Shown here one piece after another: positions 3,400-60,893 of a stretch of DNA of 64,000 bases; positions within the stretch are counted from its first letter, which is position 1; each line of letters opens with the position of its first letter. The stretch comes from Leucoraja ocellata (taxonomy: Eukaryota). The position numbers and the translations under genes were made by a program. The stretch spans positions 682,001-746,000 of the forward strand of contig JAWMAR010000272.1 in assembly GCA_036785375.1 (NCBI GenBank), in the 5' to 3' direction. The notes beneath the pieces are model-generated. The model saw only the letters and a program-made list of their open reading frames with translations, did no database searches and had not been told where the DNA came from.

Positions 3400-4699
3400 C
3401 TTTTCCCTGAGATTTATGTCTTCGGTTTCTTGGAGATACGTAACCAGCTGAACACCTTTTTGTAGCTTCCATACTTTTCCTGCCAGGCAAAGGTTCGGAG
3501 GACACAGTATCACCAGCTGGCAGGCATGACCTCGAGTCATCGGGAACTGTTTGCTTGGTGCAAAGATCTGAAGACATCGACTCAATTTGAGCATCAAACT
3601 TAGCCATGGATTGGCATGGTGCCTTAACTGAAGTGGAACATGGAATGGGATGCGCTGATAATTTGGCCTTGAGTGCAGTTTTGCACGATGGTGCAGCAGT
3701 AGATCGGGTGGAATCCTTGCGCTGGACTGTGCTTTTTGTATCACGGTTGGACTTCTGGTTGGCCTGATCTTTCCTGTCCTCTGTGGAAGCTTCTGCTGCT
3801 TGAAAGCTGAACCCAAAGTTCAAAGGATTTTGCAGGGCTTCTATATAAGATTCACGATAGCGGCATTTTATCCCTTGTTCTTCAAAGTCTCTGTTTGACC
3901 TGCTTAAGCATGGTGTGCAAGGTTCTGATGCAAACCTAATTGTCCCTCCACATGCCCATGTGCCGTTGACTGGAACCACAGAAGATTCACCTTTCTTCAG
4001 TGGAAGCTGTGCAGTCCTGTTTTCAGAGCATTTATCTTTAGAAAACATCATTAAATCCACATAATCTCCTTCAACATTTTCATTGGAGATTTCAAATTGA
4101 TTTGCTGAGATTATTCCCGATTTCATGGATAGGTGACTTAAACATTTTGCATCTTCTTTTTGGCCCAAGTTAGTCAAAGGATTTTTGATTTTGTTATCTG
4201 AATCTAGCTCAGAAGATCCAACCGAATGAGCCATCTCTATTCCTGTCTGCAAAGTCATCCTAGCGGAACCACAGTTGTTTCCCGTTTCCTGAACAGATGA
4301 TGTTTCGTGCCCAGATGATGGTGCTGCTTTGGTCTTATTTACAAATTCAGGGTTTACTATTTTAGACCAAAGCTCTTTTACAACTCCATTATCAGTGGCA
4401 AGTAGGCAAGTTTGCAATGGTGTTCCTGAACGTTCACTGTTTATTGTTTCCAGCCATTCTGTGGTAAAAATATTAGTGTAGGATACTTCTGGTATTAACT
4501 TCTCTTCCACGCTGCGGAGGTCCCTGCCCAAGCATTTCAACACAATCCGTGCAGACTGCTTCCCAACGGGTACAATTTGGAGGTAGAAATCACCCGGGCG
4601 CAGAAGAAAGATGTTGAATGATGACAACTGCACCACTAACTTCTCGTGGAGGCACAAAGGCCAGCCTTCGTGACGGAACAGGAGGCTTGAATATTCGGC
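3400..4699 (-). CDS. PLEKHG4B: Large internal coding exon (1300 nt) of a PLEKHG4B-like Rho-GEF (PLEKHG4/ARHGEF40/KIAA1755 family); N-terminal conserved domain plus long linker
   Basis: Lies within the 475-aa ORF 3296..4723. Acceptor tttttctttctcag|GCC at 4700/4699 (phase 0); donor AAAG|gtaaaa at 3400/3399 (phase 1, less certain). Translation AEYSSLLFRHEGWPLCLHEKLVVQL...LRPGDFYLQIVPVGKQSARIVLKCL...EWLETIN...PLQTCLL matches the family N-terminal domain. GKQSAR(I/L)VLKCL and YRESY(I/L)EAL(Q/R)NP resemble PLEKHG4B as I recall it; paralog assignment (vs PLEKHG4) is not certain. Confidence 0.9.
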
Positions 4700-4994
4700 C
4701 TGAGAAAGAAAAACATTGAACACTCATTAATAGAAAACTCACTGCAGCAAAATTGCTATAAACAAACAACTTGGGTAGCCACGGAACTACTTAAGCAGAT
4801 TAGTTCTCAGTATGGAGATGGTTATTAAATCCACATTCCCATGGACAGCCAAGTATCCTTTTTTTCCCCGTTCCCTCCATTTGTGATCCTAACCTGTAAA
4901 GTTCTATAGCACCAAATGACACCAAATGCACTGACATTGCTGTATCATATCATTTGATCAAGTGGTATTATATTGAGTCTTTGGATGTTTAGGC

Positions 4995-12882: not shown

Positions 12883-13765
12883 GGAACGTTCTATTGGGAC
12901 AAATTCCACTGAACCAGAGGATGATTAGTGACTTGGTTTTCAATTATCTAGCAGTTTAGCTTTCGACCAATGGCAGAAAGAGTGACAAGAAGAGGGCAAA
13001 TTCAAAATTCTGAAGAGTGTAGCCAACGGTTTGGGTGAAATAAAGCATTTTGGGTCAGGAAAAGACAGATACCACAGAATCTGGCTGTGTAATATCATTA
13101 ATATAATTCTCCTCCATTTCCTTGTGTAAGTCACAATGCATCACTAAGCATGACATGTCTAGCTGGACACATTGGTTAGTGCAATGGTCGTCAGGACAAG
13201 CATGAGTGCCTGAAATACTCAGAGAAGGTTGTCAATGTTAGTCCTTGTACAATGCTGATTAACACCTGTGCCGCCACACTGTGTTGCAATAATTCAACAA
13301 CTTCCTTTTACCAATTACGTATGGGATATCTTGGGGTCATGGCATGAAGAAAACAAGCCCTCATTACCACCTTCCCAATGGCGTTAAAGGGATTTCAGGG
13401 GTTGATGTGATAGGAAGTAACTCTTGTTATTCATTAAGTGAGAAAGTAACTTTCTGCCATTTCTATAGAGTGCTGTGGGCAGTGTTGAGGTCACACTCTT
13501 TGTAAATAATTGTCCCTGGATTTATTGGTGACCCTCCATATGGCCATTCTTAACCCATTTTACCAAGCCCCAAACCCAGGACAGAGTGAAAGCTGTTCAA
13601 CTTGCTCATTATCTACCTAATAGGCAGTTAAAGATTTGGACTCCTGGACTGGAGAGTTGTTGAGGCGATTATGCTGTGGCAGTATGTCTCATTACAAATA
13701 CAACTGTGATTCTCAAGACTGCTAAACATAGCCATGCCTGGAAGTAGAAGAATGTTCTTCAGAAA

Positions 13766-18980: not shown

Positions 18981-19210
18981 GGATGGACACAAATTGCTGG
19001 AGTAACTCAGTGGGACAGGCAGCATCTCTGAAGAGAAGGAATGGGTGACGTTTCAGGTCGACACCCTTCTTCGGATTGAAGAATCTAAAGAAGAGTCTCG
19101 ACCCGAAATGACATCCATTCCTCTCCAGAGATGCTGCCTGTCCAGCTGAGCTTCTCCAGCATTTTGTGCCCATCTTTGATTTAAACCAGCATCTGCAGTT
19201 CCTTCCTGCA
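18981..19210. mobile_element. Palindromic Penelope-derived terminal-repeat element (two inverted arms)
   Basis: gacacaaattgctggagtaactcagtgggacaggcagcatctctg...cccttcttc followed by its imperfect reverse complement gaagagtctcgacccgaaatgacatcc...gatgctgcctgtccagctgag...ccagcattttgtg. Confidence 0.75.
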
Positions 19211-19599
19211 CAATTAGATAAGGAAGTTCTACTTGATGTCATGGATAATATCCATTCCTCAGCCTACCGCATGATCTCATACCTATTACGGGATCTTGCA
19301 GTGCACAAATTAAGTCTTATCTTTCCAGGAACATTTTCTTCAGAAGGACAATTATGTGGTGAAACACATGATGGAGAAGCACAAAGGATAATTTTATCAT
19401 GGTGCTATTGCATGCAACTGACACAATCATAGACTGGAAATTGATTTATAGAATTTTACCTTGTGTGTGTATAATCAAAAATGTGTTGTTGAAATTTTTA
19501 TTGTGCAATAACAGTGGCACGATTCCGAACAGTTCAGTCTGTTCCTGGTTTGACTCAACTTGGAGGCTGGCAAAACAACTGATGTCCAATTAAAATCAA

Positions 19600-20117
19600 A
19601 AGAACCGTAGATGCAAGACATAAAATGACAGGATAGGAAGGAACTGCAGATACCGGTTTACATCGAAGATAGACACAAAATGCTGGAGTAACTCAGCGGG
19701 ACAGGCAACAGAGTTAATCCATCATTTTGTATCTATCTTCAGACATGAAATTATAACTGTTTCTCCTTTCATAGATGTTGCCTAACCTGCTTAGTCATTC
19801 CAGCATTTTGTGCTGGAAGTTCCGGAGTATCTCAGCAGGTCAGGCACTATCTCCAGAAGACATGAATAAGTGATGTTTCAGGTGTTTCATGTGTTGGAAG
19901 GAACTGCAAATGCTGGTTTACACCGAAGATATACTCTAAATGCTGGAATTACTCAGCGGGACAGGCAGCATCTCTGGATAAAAGGAATAGATGACGTTTC
20001 AGGTCAAGACACTTCATCAGGCTGGAGAAAGTTCTCGACCTGAAATATCACCTATTCCTTTTTTCCAGAGATGCTGTCTGACCTGCTGAGTTACTCCAGC
20101 ATTTTGTGACTATCTTA
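19600..20117. mobile_element. Cluster of Penelope-derived terminal repeats, including a second palindromic copy (~19896-20117)
   Basis: Repeated aaggaactgcagat...gacacaaaatgctggagtaactcagcgggacaggcagc units in both orientations. Confidence 0.7.
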
Positions 20118-22061
20118 GGTGATATTTTAGGTCTGGATTCTATGCAATTTCAGGGAGCTTGTGAGAGATCCTTTCATTCTCTTTAAATGACAAATAATGG
20201 CATCAGGGTGGCAATTTTGGTTTAGAACAAGAAGTGGGGAATGTTGAAGCCAGGAGTACTGTACACCAGGATAATGACATGCAGAGCTCCACTTAAATGA
20301 AGTTGAGTCTTACCAATGGGGATCTAGGCAGATAAATAGCCTGGACACTCAATAAATGGAAGATTGAACCCCTTGCTCATTGAGCCAAGCAGACTATTGC
20401 CAAAATCAATGAAAGGGCCTGGAGAAATCATCCCGTCACCCCCACACGAATAAACAGAAATACTGGGATTTAATTTCTGTGGATTTGTGGCTCCAATATT
20501 ACTTTAAGATGAGAGCTCAGCTTCATTAAAGTATTACATTATAGACACAACAAAGTGATTATATGAATCCAGCAGTAAGTTGGCTCAAACTTCAGCTTAT
20601 GGTATTTTAGTTAGTAACAAATGTACATTCTTCAGGCATTGGGTAAAGTATCAATGATAAACTTCATGTGCTCAAGATCAATAGGGTATTCAGCAAAAGC
20701 CCGAGTTAGGCAGTATTTTACAACTTCACCACACTGAAAAGCCTACTGTTGTTCTGGGAGGCATGTTAAAGATTTATTAATATTCCAGCCTACTTTAGTT
20801 GATGTAATGTATTTAATAAAAGGTTTATTTCTTCTGAGTATTGACAAGTTTGTAAAAAATGACTGTTGTTCTTTGATAGCCAGTCTTTCGTTCTTCCACA
20901 GAATGCATTGAATGATGTCAATTTAAATTATTTGATATAGTTTGAATTATTATGGCTGCATTTGAATTGAAAGCATTTCTGAAATAAAGTCAACGGTAAA
21001 CAAAATAATAGCCTTGCTCTCAATCAAATAAGAACCATATGTTCTTCTCTGTTGTGCATTTGTTTACGTACCTCAAAATTTAAATCACTGGTGCTCAAAG
21101 TGGGAACTGTGAGCAAAATGTTACCTCTTAAGGAGCATCTGTTAAAAGTTTTGCTTCGAACATATTCTCCTTACTTTTAAGGAAGGATGTGCATTCATTT
21201 CTAGAGCATCTAATATATCGATATCAATCAGTTAACAGTGGTTTTCCTTAGAAACCCAATGGAGGTATTGGACTAAATCTTGCAAATGGATGCCAACAGT
21301 TTCATGGTGAACTGCTGATGTTTATCCTGGTTAAGGTCCAAGACTTTGGTGGATGCGAATCCAACGTCTCAGGCCTGCTGATAGATTCTTGCCAATAGAC
21401 TTTGCTGCTAGAGTCCACACAGGATCCAGTAATCAGGCATGAACCTGCTGAAGAATCTGCTCACAGATGCTGCACCCATGCCCAGGACCCGCAATTCCAA
21501 GTATTTGTGTGAAAATGTTACATCTGCCAGGAAGGAAGGCAGGGCTCCGAGTTCAATTTATTTTAATCATTTGAGTTGGATGTTAATCTTTAAAGGATAT
21601 TTTTGGAGATGATTGTTCATTTTAGGCAGAATGTTAACAATGTTTATTTTTTCTAATTCTTTAAAAATAAAATGTTGAGTACTTCTCAATGTTAACAACA
21701 TCCAGAAGCATTTCAAAGGCTTGTCATCATTGATAGGCAACATTGCTGGGGTGTGGAAAGATACACCCAATAGCTTTGTGGGAAGATTACTTTATCCATG
21801 TCGACCCAAGAGATTGCAGATGTCTGGAACAATACATCTACCATCACGATACCGCCTGGCCCGCTGAGTTCCTCCAACAGCTTGTTTTCTTTAACCTTAT
21901 CCATGTGATCCTGATACACTACACAAGGCCCTAACATTATACATGCATGGTTCACTGGCTCTTGGATACTGATGGCCAGCAAGTTCAATCTTCTAAACCA
22001 AGTAATTGTGGTAAGAGGGGACAGAAAAGCAACAAGTCCAGCTGGTGAACTTGGGTGGAAC

Positions 22062-25313: not shown

Positions 25314-25350
25314 TCAGTCTGAAGAAGGGTCTCGACCCGAAACGTCACCC
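25314..25350 (+). ncRNA. Minimal Penelope-type (type I) hammerhead ribozyme motif
   Basis: CUGAAGA (25319-25325), A, stem II GGGUC-UC-GACCC (25327-25338), GAAAC GUC (25339-25346) with palindromic ACGU in place of stem III; sits in a Penelope terminal repeat (25314-25417). Stem I is only ~2 bp. Confidence 0.6.
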
Positions 25351-25419
25351 ATTCCTTATCTCCAGAGATGTTGCCTGTCCCGCTGTGTTACTCCACCACT
25401 TTGTGTCTACCTTCGATTG

Positions 25420-26085: not shown

Positions 26086-26395
26086 CCTGAGCACCTCCCC
26101 CTCTTTGCAGTATTTTGATTTCTTTTTTAAATTGTGATGCCCTCTTCACTCATAAAATCTACCATTTAAATCAAACATTTTGTTTCTCGTCAAAGGCCTA
26201 GACTTTGCAGTATGGCACACGCAAAGCAAACTGCTCACCAAGTTCCAGTGACAGCTGGAACAAAGATGTGATATCATTTAAATTCAGAAGAATTCATGGC
26301 ATCTAGCGGTTGTGCTGCCACTAAACTGACTGAACAACTGATCACATGAATCCTCACAGACATGACATCATAAAGGAACAGCATAATTTTTAATA

Positions 26396-26856
26396 TGTAA
26401 GAAGGAACTGCAGATGCTGGTTTAAACTGAAGATAGACACATAAAGCTGGAGTAACTCAGTGGAACAGGCAGCATCTCTGGAGGGAAGGAATGGGTGATG
26501 TTTCGGTCGAGCATGCGACTCCATGCGGCAAGCGCAACCTAACGTGGTCGCTTGAGCCGTATGGCCTCACGGGGCCGGTCCCACTTTGATCGCCGGAGCC
26601 GTATGGAGTTGTGCGGAGCTGGTCCCAACATCGCGCGGGGCTCCTAAAAACTGACCGTATTCAAAAATTCTACACGGCAACGGCCTGCCGGCCCGCAGCC
26701 GCCTCGACGCTGTACGCACGTCTTGACGCCGTACGTCACACACATAGTCATAGAGAGAATATGTAAACTCCACACACACAGCACCCTGCACCAGGATCAA
26801 ACCCAGGTCTCTGGTGTTGTGAGGCAGCAGTTCTACCAGCTGTGCCACTGTGTCAC
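26396..26856. mobile_element. Composite: Penelope terminal repeat (26396-26510), CpG-rich Harbinger-like MITE fragment (~26511-26740), SINE head on minus strand (~26745-26856)
   Basis: gtaagaaggaactgcagatgctgg... unit; ggggccggtcccactt motif related to the gggcctgtcccactt terminus at 30836; caggatcaaacccaggtctctggtgttgtgaggcagcagttctaccagctgtgccac is a reverse SINE head. Confidence 0.55.
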
Positions 26857-27061
26857 TCTGCCTCAATTCTGCACCATAATTTGATTTTGTAGTGTATTGC
26901 ACATTGATTAATAAAATAAGCAGCATTCATGCCTATTTATCTCCTGAGTGAACGAGGCATCTTGGGGTATATTTTTGTAAGAATGCTGCACATAGAAGGA
27001 GAGGCAGGGGTAAGGGTATTATGGAAATTATGTCGGGGCCTGATCAACCCCGGCTGGGTCG

Positions 27062-27135
27062 CCTGGGTGAGAGTGTCTGATGTTGTGAGACCCAAAACAC
27101 CCGATGACATCAGGTCACATCACTGAGGATGCGTC
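27062..27135 (+). ncRNA. Candidate rearranged hammerhead ribozyme, copy 1 (core G12 mutated to A, probably inactive)
   Basis: GAGUGUC| (27071-27077), UGAUGU, GACCC-AAAAC-ACCC (GAAA changed to AAAA), ACAUCA-CUGAGGA (27117-27129), U-GCGUC. Confidence 0.45.
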
Positions 27136-27594
27136 CCAGCGCGTCTAGAAGATGTATATATTTCACACTGAAGTCGGGCTATGCCAGTGGCATATAGGAA
27201 TAGACTGGGTGACAACCAAGAATAGTTTGGTGACTACTGGAGAGATAGTTGACGGTACGGAAAGATGGCACCTGGGACAGGCTGGGTTAGCACCCCAGTC
27301 TGTGCCTTTCGTGAGAAAGACACCCAATAAAGCTACAGAAAGGTCTTATGAATTACCTTGGCTTAAAAATCCATCAGGCGAGAAGAATGCGCGGAGAAGG
27401 AGAAAGAGGTGCAGCGCACAAGCCTTGAACCTGGTGAGACGCAGGAGGAGCCCGGTCAGGACTCACCCCACAGAGCCCAGTCCCTCCACACACTAGAGTC
27501 TCCCAACCCCTGCAGAGTAGTTATTAAGAGGGCTGATCCTTGGGCGGATGCTGCTGGGACGCAAGTCGGGGCCTGATCAGTCCCGGCAGGGTAA

Positions 27595-27668
27595 CCTGGG
27601 CGAGGGTGTCTGATGTTGTGAGACCCGAAACATCCGATGACCCCAGGTCACATCACTGAGGATGCATC
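27595..27668 (+). ncRNA. Candidate rearranged (non-circularly permuted) hammerhead ribozyme with k-turn, copy 2
   Basis: Stem III GGGUGU(27604-09)/ACAUCC(27630-35); cleavage triplet GUC| at 27610; stem I UGAUGU(27611-16)/ACAUCA(27650-55); CUGAGGA 27656-62; CGAAA 27626-30; weak stem II GACCC/GCAUC; k-turn CCUGGG-C-GA / GAU-GA-C-CCCAGG. Confidence 0.55.
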
Positions 27669-28549
27669 CCAGCGCATCTAGAAGATGTATATTTTTCACA
27701 CAGTAATTATAGAAATTGTCCAACCACGTTCAATACAAATTGTATGTTTAGCTTGGAAAAGATAACTTTCAAGCCTATCTATACTATATTTGCTTTAAGG
27801 TTATTACATAACCTTTATATTCCCTTTTTCTAGATTCCTCAGCTAAATCCTAGACAATATCAGGTCTTCCTGATTGAAACACCGATCAATAGAGACCAAT
27901 CAATGTGCTATTTACTATTGTCGCTGCTTGCAGAATTGGTGGGGGGGGTTTCCTGTGCCCTTTAAATTGGACCCTCTTTTGCAGATTGAATGGTACTCGT
28001 TGTGCAAAAAACACTATTTTATTCCTATTGCATGTTTCCACATTATGGGCCACTGTATATCTTCTTTTTCCAATCGGTTTGTAAATTATTTTCACTTACT
28101 TTGCCAGCTCATTATCACACCTAGCTATGTATCATAAACAAATGGAATATGTAACTAATTCATATAAATTGTAAACAGCAGAGGGCCAATGAGTGATCCC
28201 AGCCTATTGACCTGAATTACTCATGCTTTTCTGCTCTGCTGAAAACCAAATTTTCACCCATACCCCTCGAACCCTGACAATGCAATGTAATACCTTTAGA
28301 AAGTCCAGAGATATTACATCTTTTGACTTTCCTCTTATCAACTCTGCAGGCATTATTTGCAAATGCTCTATTAGATTTGTCTAATATCATGTTGTAAACA
28401 CAGCAATACATGCAGCATCTGAGAAGAGAAACAGACCTGCTTCAGTCTGAACACTGTTCCTCAGATCAATTTCTGATTGAGGGTCTTTGACCTGAAACAT
28501 TCCCTATGTTTCCTATGACCTACTCTGTTTACAGCTGCTTCTGTCATTA

Positions 28550-28975
28550 TTTCACTGGAATTTAGAAGGATGAGAGGGAATCTTATGGAAACATACAAAA
28601 TTATTAAGGGATTGGACATGCTAGATGCAGGAAACTGTTTCCGATATTGGGGGAGTCCAGAACCAGGGGCCACAGTTTCAGAATAAGGGGTAGGCCATTT
28701 GCAACTGAGATGAAGAAAAACTTTTTAACAGAAAGAGTTGTGAATTTGTGGAATTCTCTGCCTCAGAAGGCAGTGGAGGCCGATTCACTGAATGCATTCA
28801 AAAGAGAGCAAGATAGAGCTCTCAGGGCTAGCAGAACCAAGGAGTATGGGGAGAAGGCAGGAACTGGGTACTGATTGCGGATGATCAGCCATGATCACAT
28901 TGACTGGTGGTGCTGGCTCGAAGGGCCAAATGGCCTACTCCAGCATCTATTGTCTATGTATCTATGTATTTTAGA
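28550..28975 (+). mobile_element. Young CR1 (HER1-like) LINE 3' fragment
   Basis: LEFRRMRGNLMETYKII...GESRTRGHSFRIRGRPFATEMKKNFLTERVVNLWNSLPQKAVEA; tail ctcgaagggccaaatggcctactcc...tctatgtatctatgt. Confidence 0.9.
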
Positions 28976-42957: not shown

Positions 42958-43951
42958 GTGTGGCACAGTGGCACAGCGGTAGAGTTACTGCCTTACAATG
43001 CCTGAGGCCCACGTTCAATCCTGACTATGGATGCAGTCAATGAAAGTAAGCATGCAGGTACAGCAGGCAGTGAAGAAAGCGAAAGGCATGTTGGCCTTTA
43101 TAACAAGAGGATTTGAGTATAGGAGCAAAGAGGTCCTACTGCAGTTGTATAGGGTCTAATGAGACCACACCTGGAGTATTGTGTGCAGTTTTGGTTCCCT
43201 AATTTGATGAAGGACATTCTTGCTATTGAGGGAGTGCAGCGTACATTTACTAGGTTAATTCCCGGGATGGCGGGACTGTGATATGCTGAGAGAATGGAGC
43301 GGCTGTGCTTGTACACTCTGGAGTTTAGAAGGATGAGAGGGAATCTTATTGAAACATATAAGATTATTAAGGGTTTGGACACGCTAAAGGCAGGAAACAT
43401 GTTCCCGATGTTGGTGGAATCCAGAACCAGGGGCCACAGCTTAAGAATAAGGGGTAAGCCATTTAGAACGGAGATGAGGAAACACTTTTTCTCACAGAGA
43501 GTCGTGAGTCTGGGGAATTCTCCGCCTCATCGGGGGGTGGAAGCCGGTTCTCTGGATACTTTCAAGAGAGAGCTAGATAGGGCTCTTAAAGATAACATAG
43601 TCAGAGGATATGGGGAGAAGGTAGGAACGGGGTACGGATTGGAGATGATCAGCCACGATCTCATTGAATGGCGGTGCTGGCTCGAAGGGCCGAATGGCCT
43701 ATTCCTGCACCTATTGTCTATGTCTATTGCTGTCTGTATGGAGTTTGCACTTTCTCCCTGTGACTTTTCTGCATGTGTTTCTCTGGGTGCTCTGGTTTCT
43801 TTCCTCATTCGAAAGATGTGCAGGTTTGAAGGTTAATTGGCTTCTGTAAATTGTCCCTTCTGTGTAGGATACAACTAGTGTAGGGCGATTGTTGGTCCGC
43901 ATGGACCCAGTGGGCCGAAGGACCTGTTTCCATGCTATATCTCTAAGCTAA
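42958..43951 (+). mobile_element. HE1/V-SINE-type SINE split by a CR1 insertion (SINE parts ~42958-43038 and ~43728-43951)
   Basis: The head ...ttcaatcctgactatggatgcagtc stops at 43038; the SINE body resumes with tgctgtctgtatggagtttgcac at ~43728. Confidence 0.8.
43039..43727 (+). mobile_element. Young CR1 (HER1-like) LINE 3' fragment
   Basis: MKVSMQVQQAVKKAKGMLAFITRGFEYRSKEVLLQLY...RPHLEYCVQFW...LEFRRMRGNLIETYKIIKGLD...SRTRGHSLRIRG; CR1 tail. Confidence 0.92.
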
Positions 43952-46602: not shown

Positions 46603-46942
46603 GTCATAGAAACATAGGAAATAGGTGCAGGAGGAGGCCATTCGGTCCTTCGAGCCAGCACCACCATTCATGGTGCTCACGGATGATCGTCCCCAATCAA
46701 TAACCCTTGCCTGCCTTCTCCCCATATCCCTTGATTCCAATAGCCCCCTAGAGCTCTATATAACTCTCTCTTAAATCCATCCAGTGATTTGGCCTCCACA
46801 GCCCTCTGTGGCAGGGAATTCCACAAATTCACAAATCTCTGGGTGAAAAAGTTTTTTTCTCACCTCAGTCTTAAATGGCCTCGCCTTCATTCTAAGACTG
46901 TGGCCCCTGGTTCTGGACTCGCCCAACATTGGGAACATTTTT
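46603..46942 (-). mobile_element. Young CR1 LINE 3' fragment
   Basis: catagaaacataggaaataggtgcaggaggaggccattcgg...tggcccctggttctggactcgcccaacattgggaaca. Confidence 0.88.
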
Positions 46943-50925: not shown

Positions 50926-51102
50926 CATAGACACAAAATGCTGGAGTAACTCAGCGGGTCAGGGAGCATTTCTCGTGAGAATGGATAGGTGACGTTTCAG
51001 GTCGGGACCCTTCTTCAGACACAGCCCGAAATGTCACATATCCATTTTCACGAGAGATGCTCCCTGACCCACTGAATTACTGCAGCATTTTGTGTCTATC
51101 TT
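50926..51102. mobile_element. Palindromic Penelope-derived terminal-repeat element
   Basis: atagacacaaaatgctggagtaactcagcgggtcagggagcatttctcgtgagaatggata...tatccattttcacgagagatgctccctgacccactgaattactgcagcattttgtgtctat; the minus strand holds CUGAAGA-A-GGGUC-CC-GACCU-GAAAC-GUC. Confidence 0.8.
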
Positions 51103-54100
51103 TGGGATAAAGATCTTTGGTATACAGTTCTTTTTTTTTATTACACTTCAGCATATAGCATGGTTTTCATCATTCACTGATGTAAGACAGTATTTGCTTT
51201 TGTTTCTCAGCTAGGTAAGTAGTGATTAGCCACATCCTTACAATATATTCAGAGATAAACTATTTTCAATGCTTCCTTTTTTTCACCCATTTTTTCTTTA
51301 ATTCTACAATTCATTCTAAATAGTCTGGATTTTGTGGCAGGAGCTCAGTATTTCATCTATTATTCCTTGAACCTTTAGAAAATATCCATGTTGGCAAACT
51401 ATTTTTATGCGGCCTCTGCTCTACCAAAGTGAAATGAAATTAATTCCGTTCTGCTTGAGAGTCTCTGTCATCCTCCACACCAAGTAACTGCAAGTTATTT
51501 ACAACTGATACCAGCCACACCTCACCCCACCACCATTTGCAATGAGCCAGAGGCAAGGTTGGGAGCCATCAGCGTCAGGAAGAACGGTCCAGACATGGTT
51601 GTAGCCATGGTGACTGATGGACAACAACTAGGCATCTTTAAATCTGTTGTTCAATCACAGATTCTGTGATGAAACAGAAACATTCCTCAAAAACTGCAAG
51701 CATTCCACTGTAGAGGCACCTGAGCAGTTTTACTCATCAACTGAGAAAGGATTGTTGTAAAAGCAGAGCAGCTTCAAATCCCAAACCATGTCTGGAATGG
51801 ATAGTACCTGTCAGTAAACAAATCATTTGAAAATCCTATATATTGCTCATCTATAACGCTGAAGCAATGTTTCCAAAGACATTTGGAGAGTAGAACTTCT
51901 AGCTAGAGGCCTTTTCCCTCCTCTTTCAGCCTCTACTGGTAATGCAGTCATAGAGCCATGCAGCACAGAAACATGCCCTTTGGCCCAATTCATTCATGCT
52001 GAACAAAATATCCTATCTAAGCTAGTCCCATTTGCTTGTGTTTGGCCCATATCTATCTAAACCTTTCCCATCCATGTAGTTGTTCAAGTGTCTTTTAAAT
52101 GCTATTATAAGGCCTACCCCAACCACTTCCTCTGGCACTTGTTCCTTATACTTGAAAGCCAACACGTTCCAATACGCCAAAGCCTGTGGGCTCTCCGCTC
52201 CACCTGCCTTCAGCATTGAGGCCCAGCAGGCATCAGAGGTTCAAATGTATGGTTAATGATACCTCAACATTTTGAAACATCAGACAGACTTTGAGACTCA
52301 GAATCCTGGCAAGTGATGCCAGCACTCAACTCTTGGAGTAAACGCAGTGTGTTTCCACAAAATGGATTTCCACACTTGGGTTCAGTACAGAATCAACCTA
52401 TTGAAAGTTTCACTTGTGAAAGGTTAGATTGAACTGTGTAGGATGAGAATCACGGGGAACACCAGTTGGACAAAGACCTACAAGAATTGAAACAGGAGGA
52501 ACATTTATCATGGAAACTTACTGATCTAAATTCTGTCTCCTTGCATCTGAACGTATCCTGGAGCTTTGGAGTGATACTCCAGAAACATGAATTTTAATCC
52601 AATCCCATGATCTGGGAATATAAATTCAATATTATTTATCCAGAATAAAAATCTGTTTTCCATAATTGTAACCATGAAACTACCAGATTGTAAAAATAAA
52701 ACAATTGTTTTGGTAAGCTCCTTTAAGAAGGAAGTCTAGTATTTTTACCTACTTATGATTCAAGGCACAGAACAATGTAATTCACTTTTAAATCAAATGA
52801 CAAAAAACTATTTGGTTCAAAGGCAAAAGGGAATGGACAACAAACACAAAGCTGGCTAATGATGTCGCCTCCCAATGAATGAATGAATGAAACAAAAATT
52901 AAAAAGTTGAACTGGCAAGGATTCGCCCATATAGCACCTATGATAAAGCAGGGCAGCTGGAGACAATAATATCTAGATCAAAGTTTAAGAGTGATTATTG
53001 ACATAGGTTGAAAACTCAGGATTTGAATAAAGAACCTGCAGGATATGACACATTCAGAAAAGGCAGAGATGATAAAAGGGACAGACTCAGTACCAATAAA
53101 AGGAATCCATCTGAATCCAGTCATGAAAAAGATTTTATAAAAGGTCAATTAAAATAATCTGCAGGCACTCTAATAAAGGAAGCAAGCAGAGAAAGAAAAT
53201 GCAAATCCCATGATTATGACACCAGAATTAGTTGGCATGAAAAGGTAGGCAATGAGGCAGAAAGAGTGCACAGGACTACTTCCTAACCAAATAGATTTTA
53301 AAAAGTCAACAAAGAATTTACACAGAGATTAGAAATAAAAGCACAGGAGTAGTTAAGTAACAGAGACCACAATATCATTTGATTTAATAAGTGAGAAGGA
53401 CAAGTATGATGAAGACCAAAGTATTGAATTGGAGAAAGGACAATTTGAGAACTTGGGAAAATAAAATGTACAAAAGTATTGGCAAACGATTTCAAACAGC
53501 AGGGTAAATCTGACCCTTTTGATCTGTCCAGGAAAAATATATTCAATGAATAAACAAGAATAAATTAAACTGTAATGAGACTCCATGAATAAACAATGAC
53601 ATAAGAAAAAGATTGAATGTTTCAAAGAAGCTTATGCTAAGTGTACTAACTGTGTTTGGATGAGTATGTTAAAAGAACTAAATTAGGAAATAAATCGAAA
53701 TACAACTGAAAGGGCAAGAGGAACTATGAACATAAGGAATATAACACAAAATAGTAACACAATATTTCATGTTTATATAAATGTAAATGGATTAGTCACG
53801 GCAGGAGTAAAGTTATTAGCAAATGGTTCCAATGTAATCATTGGCTGAGAGGCAAGAAACTTTTGGATCCATATTTAACAAGAGGTCAGATAAGCGAGAC
53901 ATGATAGTATTAGATGAGATTATCAATAATATACATAGAATATAAAGCAGAGACAGGCCTTTTGGCCCATAATGTCTGTGCTGAACATAATGCCAAGATA
54001 AACTAATCCCTCCCACTTGTTCATGATCCATATATCACCATTCCCTGCATATGCATGTGTTATCTAAACGCCTTTTCAACGTCACTATTGTAATTGCCTC

Positions 54101-60440: not shown

Positions 60441-60851
60441 ACATAGAAACATAGAAAAGAGGTGCAGGAGTAGGCCATTCAGCCCTTTGAGCCTGCACCG
60501 CCATTCAATATGATCATGGCTGATCATCCAACTCAGTCTCCTGTACCTGCCTTCTCTCCATACCCCCTGATCCCTTTAGCCACAAGGGCCACATCTAACC
60601 ATCTTAAATATAGCCAATGAACTGGCCTCAACTAACTTCTGTGGCAGAGAATTCCACAGATTCACCACTCTCTGTGTAAAAAATGATTTTCTCATCTCGG
60701 TCCCAAAAGAGTTTCCTCTTATCTTTAAACTGTGACCCCTTGTTCTGGACTTCCCCATCATCGGGAACAATCTTCCTGCATCTAGCCTGCCCAACCCCTT
60801 AAGAATTTTGTAAATTTCTATAAGATCCCCCCTCAATCTTCTAAATTCTAG
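60441..60851 (-). mobile_element. Young CR1 LINE 3' fragment
   Basis: LEFRRLRGDLIEIYKILKGLGRLDAGRLFPMMGKSRTRGHSLKIRG...RVVNLWNSLPQK; (catagaaa)n tail. Confidence 0.92.
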
Positions 60852-60893
60852 AAGATTAACATACAATCCTGACTTGGAAATATCTCACCACTT

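Follow-up and report, generated by a model that had tools for sequence, protein, structure and literature searches.

Structure of the insertion in the window

A LINE-derived insertion is located at positions 27032 to 27701 of the window, the whole analyzed stretch of 64,000 nucleotides. Its parts and flanks are the following.

27016..27029, + strand, possible target-site duplication, left copy (uncertain)
27032..27701, + strand, whole insertion, a non-autonomous, doubly deleted HERO-LINE derivative of about 1.26 units, differing from the family majority at 32 of 533 unit positions
27032..27168, + strand, 5′ redundant copy of the 3′ end, 137 nt (143 nt in one related organism), with an incomplete ribozyme
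27077/27078, + strand, equivalent of the predicted cleavage site in the 5′ repeat
27168..27169, + strand, invariant junction of the element 3′ end to the 5′ UTR (65 exact genomic matches to a 21-nt junction pattern)
27169..27352, + strand, HERO 5′ UTR up to the first deletion (family consensus 93.5% to the parent copy L117)
27350..27522, + strand, remnant of the ORF N-terminus with the zinc-finger end and the PGETQEEPG region (translation and protein comparison)
27522..27523, + strand, main deletion joint, at which about 3 kb including RT and endonuclease are lost (joint pattern matched exactly 214 times)
27523..27576, + strand, last ORF codons and stop codon, the stop lying within the loop of hairpin H1
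27556..27670, + strand, predicted S-G-C hammerhead-type fold
27565..27701, + strand, 3′ terminal copy with the fixed family 3′ end
27610..27611, + strand, predicted cleavage site, 91 nt before the 3′ end, positioned by analogy to hammerheads
27703..27717, + strand, possible target-site duplication, right copy (uncertain)

As described in an earlier reading of the sequence alone, the two direct repeats (27032-27168 and 27565-27701) are 137 bp long each, are offset by 533 and enclose 396 bp (BLAST E 8e-49). With 14 of 137 positions being different, their identity is 89.8%, a divergence on which that reading was silent. Its description of the repeat as stop codon plus 3′ UTR is in agreement with the parent ORF, in whose last codons (V-G-A-stop) the repeat begins before spanning the 3′ UTR, and a copy of the 3′ end does precede the 5′ UTR, as it had stated. 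The inner part translates as two LINE-ORF pieces joined in frame, and about 125 nt of the parent are missing at the first deletion near unit position 182-184. The family unit comprises about 535 nt, 533 being the spacing of the window copy itself (alignment lengths; 1-2 inserted letters near 27384).

The flanking duplication of about 14 bp, which had been taken as a sign of one insertion, exists as 12 nt with one mismatch (score 19) but is weak. In one related organism 32 extra letters are found between 27031 and 27032, of which the last 6 match the element, so that the left flank copy did not originally adjoin the element. The 3′ junction is the same as in the window in all three DNA runs of related organisms, and no empty orthologous site could be found in these three runs.

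Each repeat had furthermore been credited with a ribozyme core. This holds for the 3′ copy, in which the core is kept and single mismatches occur in e, H1 and a, but not for the 5′ repeat, which is without strand e, reads A instead of G12 at 27094 and has a damaged helix b. The GUC| positions were confirmed at C27077 and C27610; because the 5′ ribozyme is incomplete and mutated, the locus would be unable to release the proposed 533-nt monomer today. The window copy is best read as a product that ran 137-143 nt past one turn and is now dead. In a polyA RNA run of one related organism (a single library), depth was low on both strands and no end pile-ups were seen.

The mini-element family in the genome

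The 3.44-Gb source genome was searched with the mini-element, which resulted in 2059 candidates, and 40 loci were scored. Of these, 39 end at query 660-670, and the 5′ starts vary. Exact-pattern counts, which are lower bounds, amount to at least 214 for the main deletion joint, at least 65 for the 3′-to-5′ junction and at least 124 for the parent C-terminus. Of the parent, the mini-element retains the 5′ UTR and the 3′ end; some 125 nt near the start and about 3 kb of the ORF are deleted. Its copies lie about 4-5% from the majority sequence, without a fixed difference between 5′ and 3′ repeats. It is a SIDE-like, non-autonomous, internally deleted LINE in which the parent ends are kept and the coding core is lost, and it has been amplified as a family of its own.

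The upstream redundant piece measures 8-370 nt among 43 unique mini sites reaching the unit start, a sample drawn by BLAST rank and junction pattern and thus biased to copies having redundancy. Long redundancies (L006, L052, L060) include the mini-specific deletion joint, which indicates that the 5′ repeat was remade from the mini-element itself. Sharing between the 5′ and 3′ repeats within a mini locus was found at 13 of 3258 sites (0.40% vs 0.27% cross-locus).

The many copies with the same internal deletion and the variable length of the 5′ redundancy had both been anticipated by the sequence-only reading. Two further expectations were not borne out. As judged from the full list of 65 exact junction matches and the fetched loci, tandem multimers are missing: no two of the 65 junctions are adjacent, and the longest redundancy at the 43 sites is 370 of 533 nt. 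Target-site duplications were rejected as a family trait, the scores being irregular over 81 unique insertions: a score of at least 19 was reached by two (0.5 expected), namely the window copy and a microsatellite, and a score of at least 16 by seven (2.2 expected).

Further-deleted or 3′-truncated minis that still carry the junction are L053, L056, L057, L065, L075, L078 and L304. In L073 and L074, redundancy is present together with a 5′ segment that is lost from most minis.

The parent LINE

A protein search with the ORF piece of the window yielded 11 relatives among 25 candidates, five of them RT-bearing. The full-length relatives have about 1080 aa and the same C-terminal residues as the window piece; Pfam RVT_1 scored above and zf-RVT below the cutoff, and their best PDB matches are R2 proteins. 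The parent has a single ORF with an N-terminal zinc finger, RT, a CCHC knuckle and a restriction-like endonuclease, the zinc-finger and endonuclease motifs being spotted by eye.

The homolog P0011 shows about 24 differences in about 325 residues, counted by eye, to the HERO-2_DR row in supplement 6 of PMC5678591. In its RT region, the parent copy L117 is 80-83% and the autonomous family B 73-74% identical to P0011 (tblastn). This by-eye alignment row and the tblastn identities support the HERO clade label for the parent, as had been suggested before. For HERO-2_DR and HEROTn (PMC5678591, PMC7650587), a single ORF of about 1080 aa with RT is described, like that of the parent here. The autonomous family-A copy L117 itself has only about 6 nt of redundancy upstream of the unit start.

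Terminal redundancy in family B and distant relatives

Family B is a second autonomous HERO family with a length of 3.65 kb. Of 36 family-B loci, 14 extend to the unit start, and in every one of these it is preceded immediately by 42-342 nt of the 3′ end, joined in the same way, compared to 0 of 22 truncated copies with an upstream 3′ piece; both counts include paralogous duplicates. In total, 63 exact family-B junctions were found, and the redundancy amounts to 14-386 nt across 26 unique sites, aside from L181. This permuted copy consists of q1724-3646 (1923 nt), the junction and q1-270, with nothing further in 4.6 kb (G000:C20:2478500-2488400).

Among 26 metagenome loci, the junction could be detected in three. 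L231 (66% aa identity) has at least 112 nt upstream that are 99% identical, its contig beginning inside the repeat; the reverse-strand element of L238 has about 50 nt upstream of the junction; and in L235 (49% aa identity) the junction is present, which may be a collapsed assembly. Terminal redundancy is a property of HERO LINEs themselves and not special to the mini-element.

Several loci show peculiarities of their own. One family-B insertion with a 47-nt redundancy and the same flanks is repeated many times on the contigs C428, C478, C1051, C1278 and C1626 (G000), apparently in a segmentally amplified region, by which raw junction counts are inflated. A recurrent two-base change in a quasi-palindrome at family-B unit positions 3627-3630 (L112, L130, L127) looks like a template-switch inversion and is for this reason unsafe as a subfamily marker. 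In L111 (G000:C413; oriented 505-1002 and 4335-4832), the 5′ repeat and 189 nt of host flank were copied into the 3′ part of the same element using a 3-nt microhomology, which shows DNA-level exchange between terminal repeats; the near-identical repeats of this locus were dropped as evidence, as they go back to a local DNA copying event that includes the flank. HERO copies in or next to long simple-repeat tracts were seen in L119, L127/L140 and L144.

A hammerhead-type fold in the 3′ repeat

All core motifs of a hammerhead are found in the repeat, arranged as cleavage site, GAAA, CUGANGA (S-G-C). The following helices and blocks were assigned in the 3′ copy.

27556-63/27663-70, + strand, helix e
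27564-71/27581-88, + strand, hairpin H1
27589-93/27622-26, + strand, helix a (stem II)
27595-600/27642-47, + strand, helix b (presumed stem I-II interaction helix)
27604-09/27630-35, + strand, stem III
27611-15/27651-55, + strand, stem I
27627-30, + strand, GAAA block
27656-62, + strand, CUGANGA block

Strand e lies in the last ORF codons, and the 5′ strand of stem II comes after hairpin H1. A direct join of A9 and G12 by stem II is absent: the strand after CUGANGA pairs with the upstream e and the strand before GAAA with the upstream a, so that a four-way junction is formed by the core, e, H1 and stem II; in L235, L238, L253 and both families A and B, it contains no spare nucleotides. The linker between stems I and II comprises about 3-7 nt. 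Helix b covaries and, in our own mapping, would correspond to the stem I-II interaction helix of type-SGC hammerheads.

In a 9-sequence alignment, in which L238 is partly misregistered, the six helices are paired in 91.6% of 323 cells, and compensatory changes occur at 15 of 36 pairs. Pairing as high as observed was reached by 0 of 500 shuffles and slid partners gave 29-45%, in a control that ignores relatedness. The same helices can be drawn from different sequences in L235, L238, L242 and L253, which have 36-49% aa identity to the query. Here the helices were parsed by hand, and L242 and L243 were inspected by eye. Stem I has a different sequence but still pairs in each of L235, L238, L242 and L253, and so does helix a in L235 and L238, with 4 of 5 pairs in L253. 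A loose descriptor matched in 8 of 26 metagenome loci, in 0 of 15 shuffled windows and once in the window, at 12952, where HERO context is missing and the match was treated as chance.

Over 12 lineages, G, U or C is found at N7, and C, A or U, but never G, at H17. The other core positions are constant except for G12 (L236, L239, L243) and G8 (L243). G12 reads A in these three of the 12 lineages, each time in a single genomic copy and in CpG context. CUGANGA, GAAA, NUH and stems I and III are present apart from L236, L239, L243 and the 5′ copy of the window. The core varies where hammerheads tolerate change.

An Rfam scan of 26500-28300 gave no hammerhead match, the only hit being a chance match to a bacterial sRNA (E 0.19). 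Plain ViennaRNA folds and cofolds, which cannot form pseudoknots, returned e and H1 at a pair probability of 0.73-1.0 and b and III at about 0.5; a and I were not recovered. Attempts by hand to fit classical type I/III hammerhead and HDV-like topologies failed, and a canonical stem II between the strands after CUGANGA and before GAAA was rejected, as both covary with other partners. Of the ribozyme proposed from sequence alone, the hammerhead-type site at GUC| was retained, in an S-G-C permutation with a four-way junction and not in the classical type I/III form. In our judgement, the fold is very probably a conserved hammerhead-type structure, and it is likely that it cleaves.

Cleavage in vitro has been reported for type-SGC hammerheads by Eckert et al. 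2023 (PMC10085705), who found them in metatranscriptomes but not in genomes of known organisms. The fold described here shares with them the S-G-C order, the short stem I-II linker, the interaction helix (b) and the conserved core nucleotides. It differs in its occurrence in an animal LINE and in block C, which is split between A9 and stem II, whereas in the type-SGC examples given there CUGANGA runs straight into stem II. In the HERO fold only, the 5′ strand of stem II and the interaction strand lie upstream and are joined to A9 via the four-way junction of e and H1. The A at G12 in three lineages speaks against the hammerhead reading, and so does this split, since the block is assumed to be uninterruptible in PMC10085705. 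If the reading is correct, the fold would break this assumption, and non-circularly permuted hammerheads, known from environmental RNAs, would also occur in animal genomes.

At window 27572-27580, the H1 loop contains the stop codon inside a self-complementary hexamer, with equivalents in L231, L235, L238 and L242. The hexamer is kept in most lineages, not in L253, and is a possible kissing-loop site.

Template of reverse transcription

The usual view of LINEs is that a linear RNA whose 3′ end is free serves as the template. For the HERO LINEs and the deleted mini-element, a template that is in effect a circular RNA, most likely closed covalently, is slightly favored, and the circular template proposed by the sequence-only reading is retained as the best explanation. 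The starting point would be the transcript of a source copy with redundancy spanning the whole fold (at least about 146 nt), which would be cleaved at both GUC| sites. The two ends of the resulting unit-length RNA would be held together by helices e, a, b and III (25 bp in the consensus), which should favor ligation. The HERO RT/endonuclease would then nick the target and prime internally, about 91 nt downstream of the cut, with 0-6 nt of microhomology. The RT would copy once round and stall within a few hundred nucleotides while displacing its own cDNA, by which the 3′ end would be repeated before the 5′ end and ribozyme-complete source copies would be regenerated. The redundancy exceeds the full ribozyme length at 20 of 69 sites (8 of 43 in family A and 12 of 26 in family B), which is enough to serve as new sources.

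The invariant junction (65 exact matches for the mini-element, 63 for family B), the fixed 3′ end and the permuted copy L181 argue for a circle. The positions of the 3′ ends scatter over a range of a few nucleotides that overlaps the first bases of the 5′ UTR, as expected for internal priming by microhomology and equally for a linear RNA that terminates at this point. On the second pass, termination within about 280 nt is seen in 41 of 51 copies that cross the junction and have at least 35 nt upstream, compared to 21 of 78 free 3′-end copies on the first pass (P = 3e-9); the latter were not deduplicated and stem from the first 40 listed 3′-end sites per family, nearly in list order, of 281 and 484 matches. 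No pile-up of second-pass 5′ ends at the cleavage site is present among the 69 sites (family A: 81, 91, 95; family B: 72, 97). Two of six first-pass copies of up to 100 nt end within 2 nt of the predicted cut. Copying of a circle with cDNA displacement fits both the fast second-pass stop and the missing pile-up.

Other observations count against a circle. Non-CpG markers disagree between the 5′ and 3′ repeats in L114/L189 (two sites), L112 and L113 (one each), where a single circle predicts agreement. Rare markers agree in L185/L196, L198, L145 and partly L183, and gene conversion blurs this test, as is apparent from the 3′ ends of the paralogous pairs L113/L190 and L130/L148, which are not identical within a pair. 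Furthermore, 5′ ends are in excess 40-61 nt upstream of the junction (18 of 66 vs 9.7 expected), no double-junction copy occurs among the 65 exact mini matches, and the longest mini redundancy falls short of one unit.

R2-type RTs jump between template ends. This gives a precedent for an alternative in which the ribozyme is active and the RNA linear: the cut in the upstream repeat would set the 5′ end, and the RT would jump by homology to the 3′ repeat of the same RNA, sometimes of another. Such jumps would account for the discordant markers in L112, L113 and L114 and for the lack of multimers, and a jump within the same molecule also predicts fast second-pass termination. The predicted pile-up of 5′ ends at 91 or 88 nt is absent, however, and a jump to fresh RNA would behave like a first pass and generate kilobase redundancies, but 25 of 26 family-B sites have 386 nt or less. 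We consider this alternative unlikely.

Next comes linear read-through from partly tandem sources, comparable to HeT-A, TART and Penelope pseudo-LTRs, with the redundancy contained in the RNA and shortened by 5′ truncation. Rare jumps or tandem insertions would renew the redundancy, and the fold would be protein-binding, regulatory or rarely cleaving. Ligation is not needed, the invariant junction and the bounded redundancy follow, and 5′ and 3′ repeats are allowed to differ. There is no pile-up at any maximum length, however, and the redundancy, which should then erode from one generation to the next, persists in two families and their deletion derivatives. The conservation of the hammerhead pattern in 12 lineages, with N7 and H17 free and H17 never G, would be left unexplained. 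Taken as a whole, this combination appears rather doubtful.

It is very unlikely that the ribozyme works as a dimer or in trans, the CUGANGA strand of one repeat or RNA acting on another, with about 50 nt of redundancy as the functional minimum. The excess of 5′ ends lies just upstream of the 3′ strand of stem I, where 5′ ends are also found in L296, L304 and the element on the reverse strand of L238, and the hexamer in the H1 loop of most lineages is self-complementary; against this, all helices can form within one copy, and the cofold without pseudoknots did not recover the core. Finally, an older truncated copy with a second copy inserted at its 3′ end, by self-targeting or by chance as the first reading had considered, is highly improbable and largely refuted despite the abundance of truncated 3′ fragments (281 and 484 exact 3′ motif matches), because the upstream 3′ piece is found in 14 of 14 complete and 0 of 22 truncated family-B copies, the junction is exact and the upstream pieces are much shorter than free 3′ fragments.

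For the circular template as part of the complete scenario, the chances appear balanced. In this scenario, HERO LINEs across hosts, to about 36-49% protein identity, would have an active new form of hammerhead and a ribozyme-made circle copied by internally primed TPRT, and the mini-element would be a circular parasite.

Comparison with known elements

To our knowledge, the known LINE ribozymes are 5′ HDV-like ones. Compared to the known kinds, the ribozyme form and the LINE architecture appear to be new, and the replication route, for which the odds are even, is not described for LINEs. In the literature searched, which lay outside Repbase, Dfam and most subscription journals, neither a terminal redundancy nor a 3′ UTR ribozyme was found for HERO elements.

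Like the R2 SIDEs (PMC6765202), the mini-element is non-autonomous and derives from an RLE LINE by internal deletion, with a ribozyme and both ends being retained. R2, as presented in the same review, is site-specific, with a 5′ HDV-like ribozyme on an rRNA co-transcript and without terminal redundancy, unlike the HERO mini-element. Penelope-like elements are likewise coding retroelements with partial tandem terminal repeats that contain hammerheads (PMC6765202), but they belong to another RT clade and have a GIY-YIG nuclease (PMC8557442) and the classical hammerhead order.

The non-LTR retrozymes (PMC7229834; bioRxiv 10.64898/2026.07.22.740005) and the plant LTR retrozymes are also non-coding with a hammerhead in the repeated part, and unit-length RNA circles are proposed or shown. 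They are described there with type I/III hammerheads and Penelope or Ty3 partners, as dimers to multimers or with LTRs with PBS/PPT and 4-bp TSDs. The mini-element comprises less than two units, ends at the fixed 3′ end of a LINE and derives directly from its own LINE partner by deletion. It does not form tandem arrays of 170-400-nt units (65 junctions; at most 370 nt extra at 43 sites), and its S-G-C order is not that of a type I hammerhead. In place of fixed LTRs with a 4-bp TSD, the 5′ repeat varies from 8 to 370 nt and TSDs are not regular. If the circle is real, the mini-element works like a retrozyme, yet it lacks the retrozyme features tested. The retrozyme-like identity given to it by the first reading was therefore replaced: redundancy and ribozyme belong to the autonomous HERO LINEs, and the mini-element is a parasite, derived by deletion, of a LINE whose ends are duplicated.

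If true, a 3′ UTR hammerhead and a self-renewing redundancy would link a LINE clade to retrozyme and viroid-like circular RNA biology. There would be protein-coding LINEs with self-renewing terminal repeats, and the retention of an intact 5′ end by such elements, which have no fixed target site, would find an explanation. RLE LINE proteins are of interest for genome insertion tools.

Other repeats in the window

An abundant short repeat is located at 18982-19212, 19890-20124, 50927-51109, 25314-25418 and 26385-26511 of the window, with some inverted pairs. The region 26790-26860 shows very deep coverage in reads of related organisms. A dispersed repeat of about 410 bp with 75-84% identity is found at 28555-28967, 43318-43723, 46605-46941 and 60441-60852.
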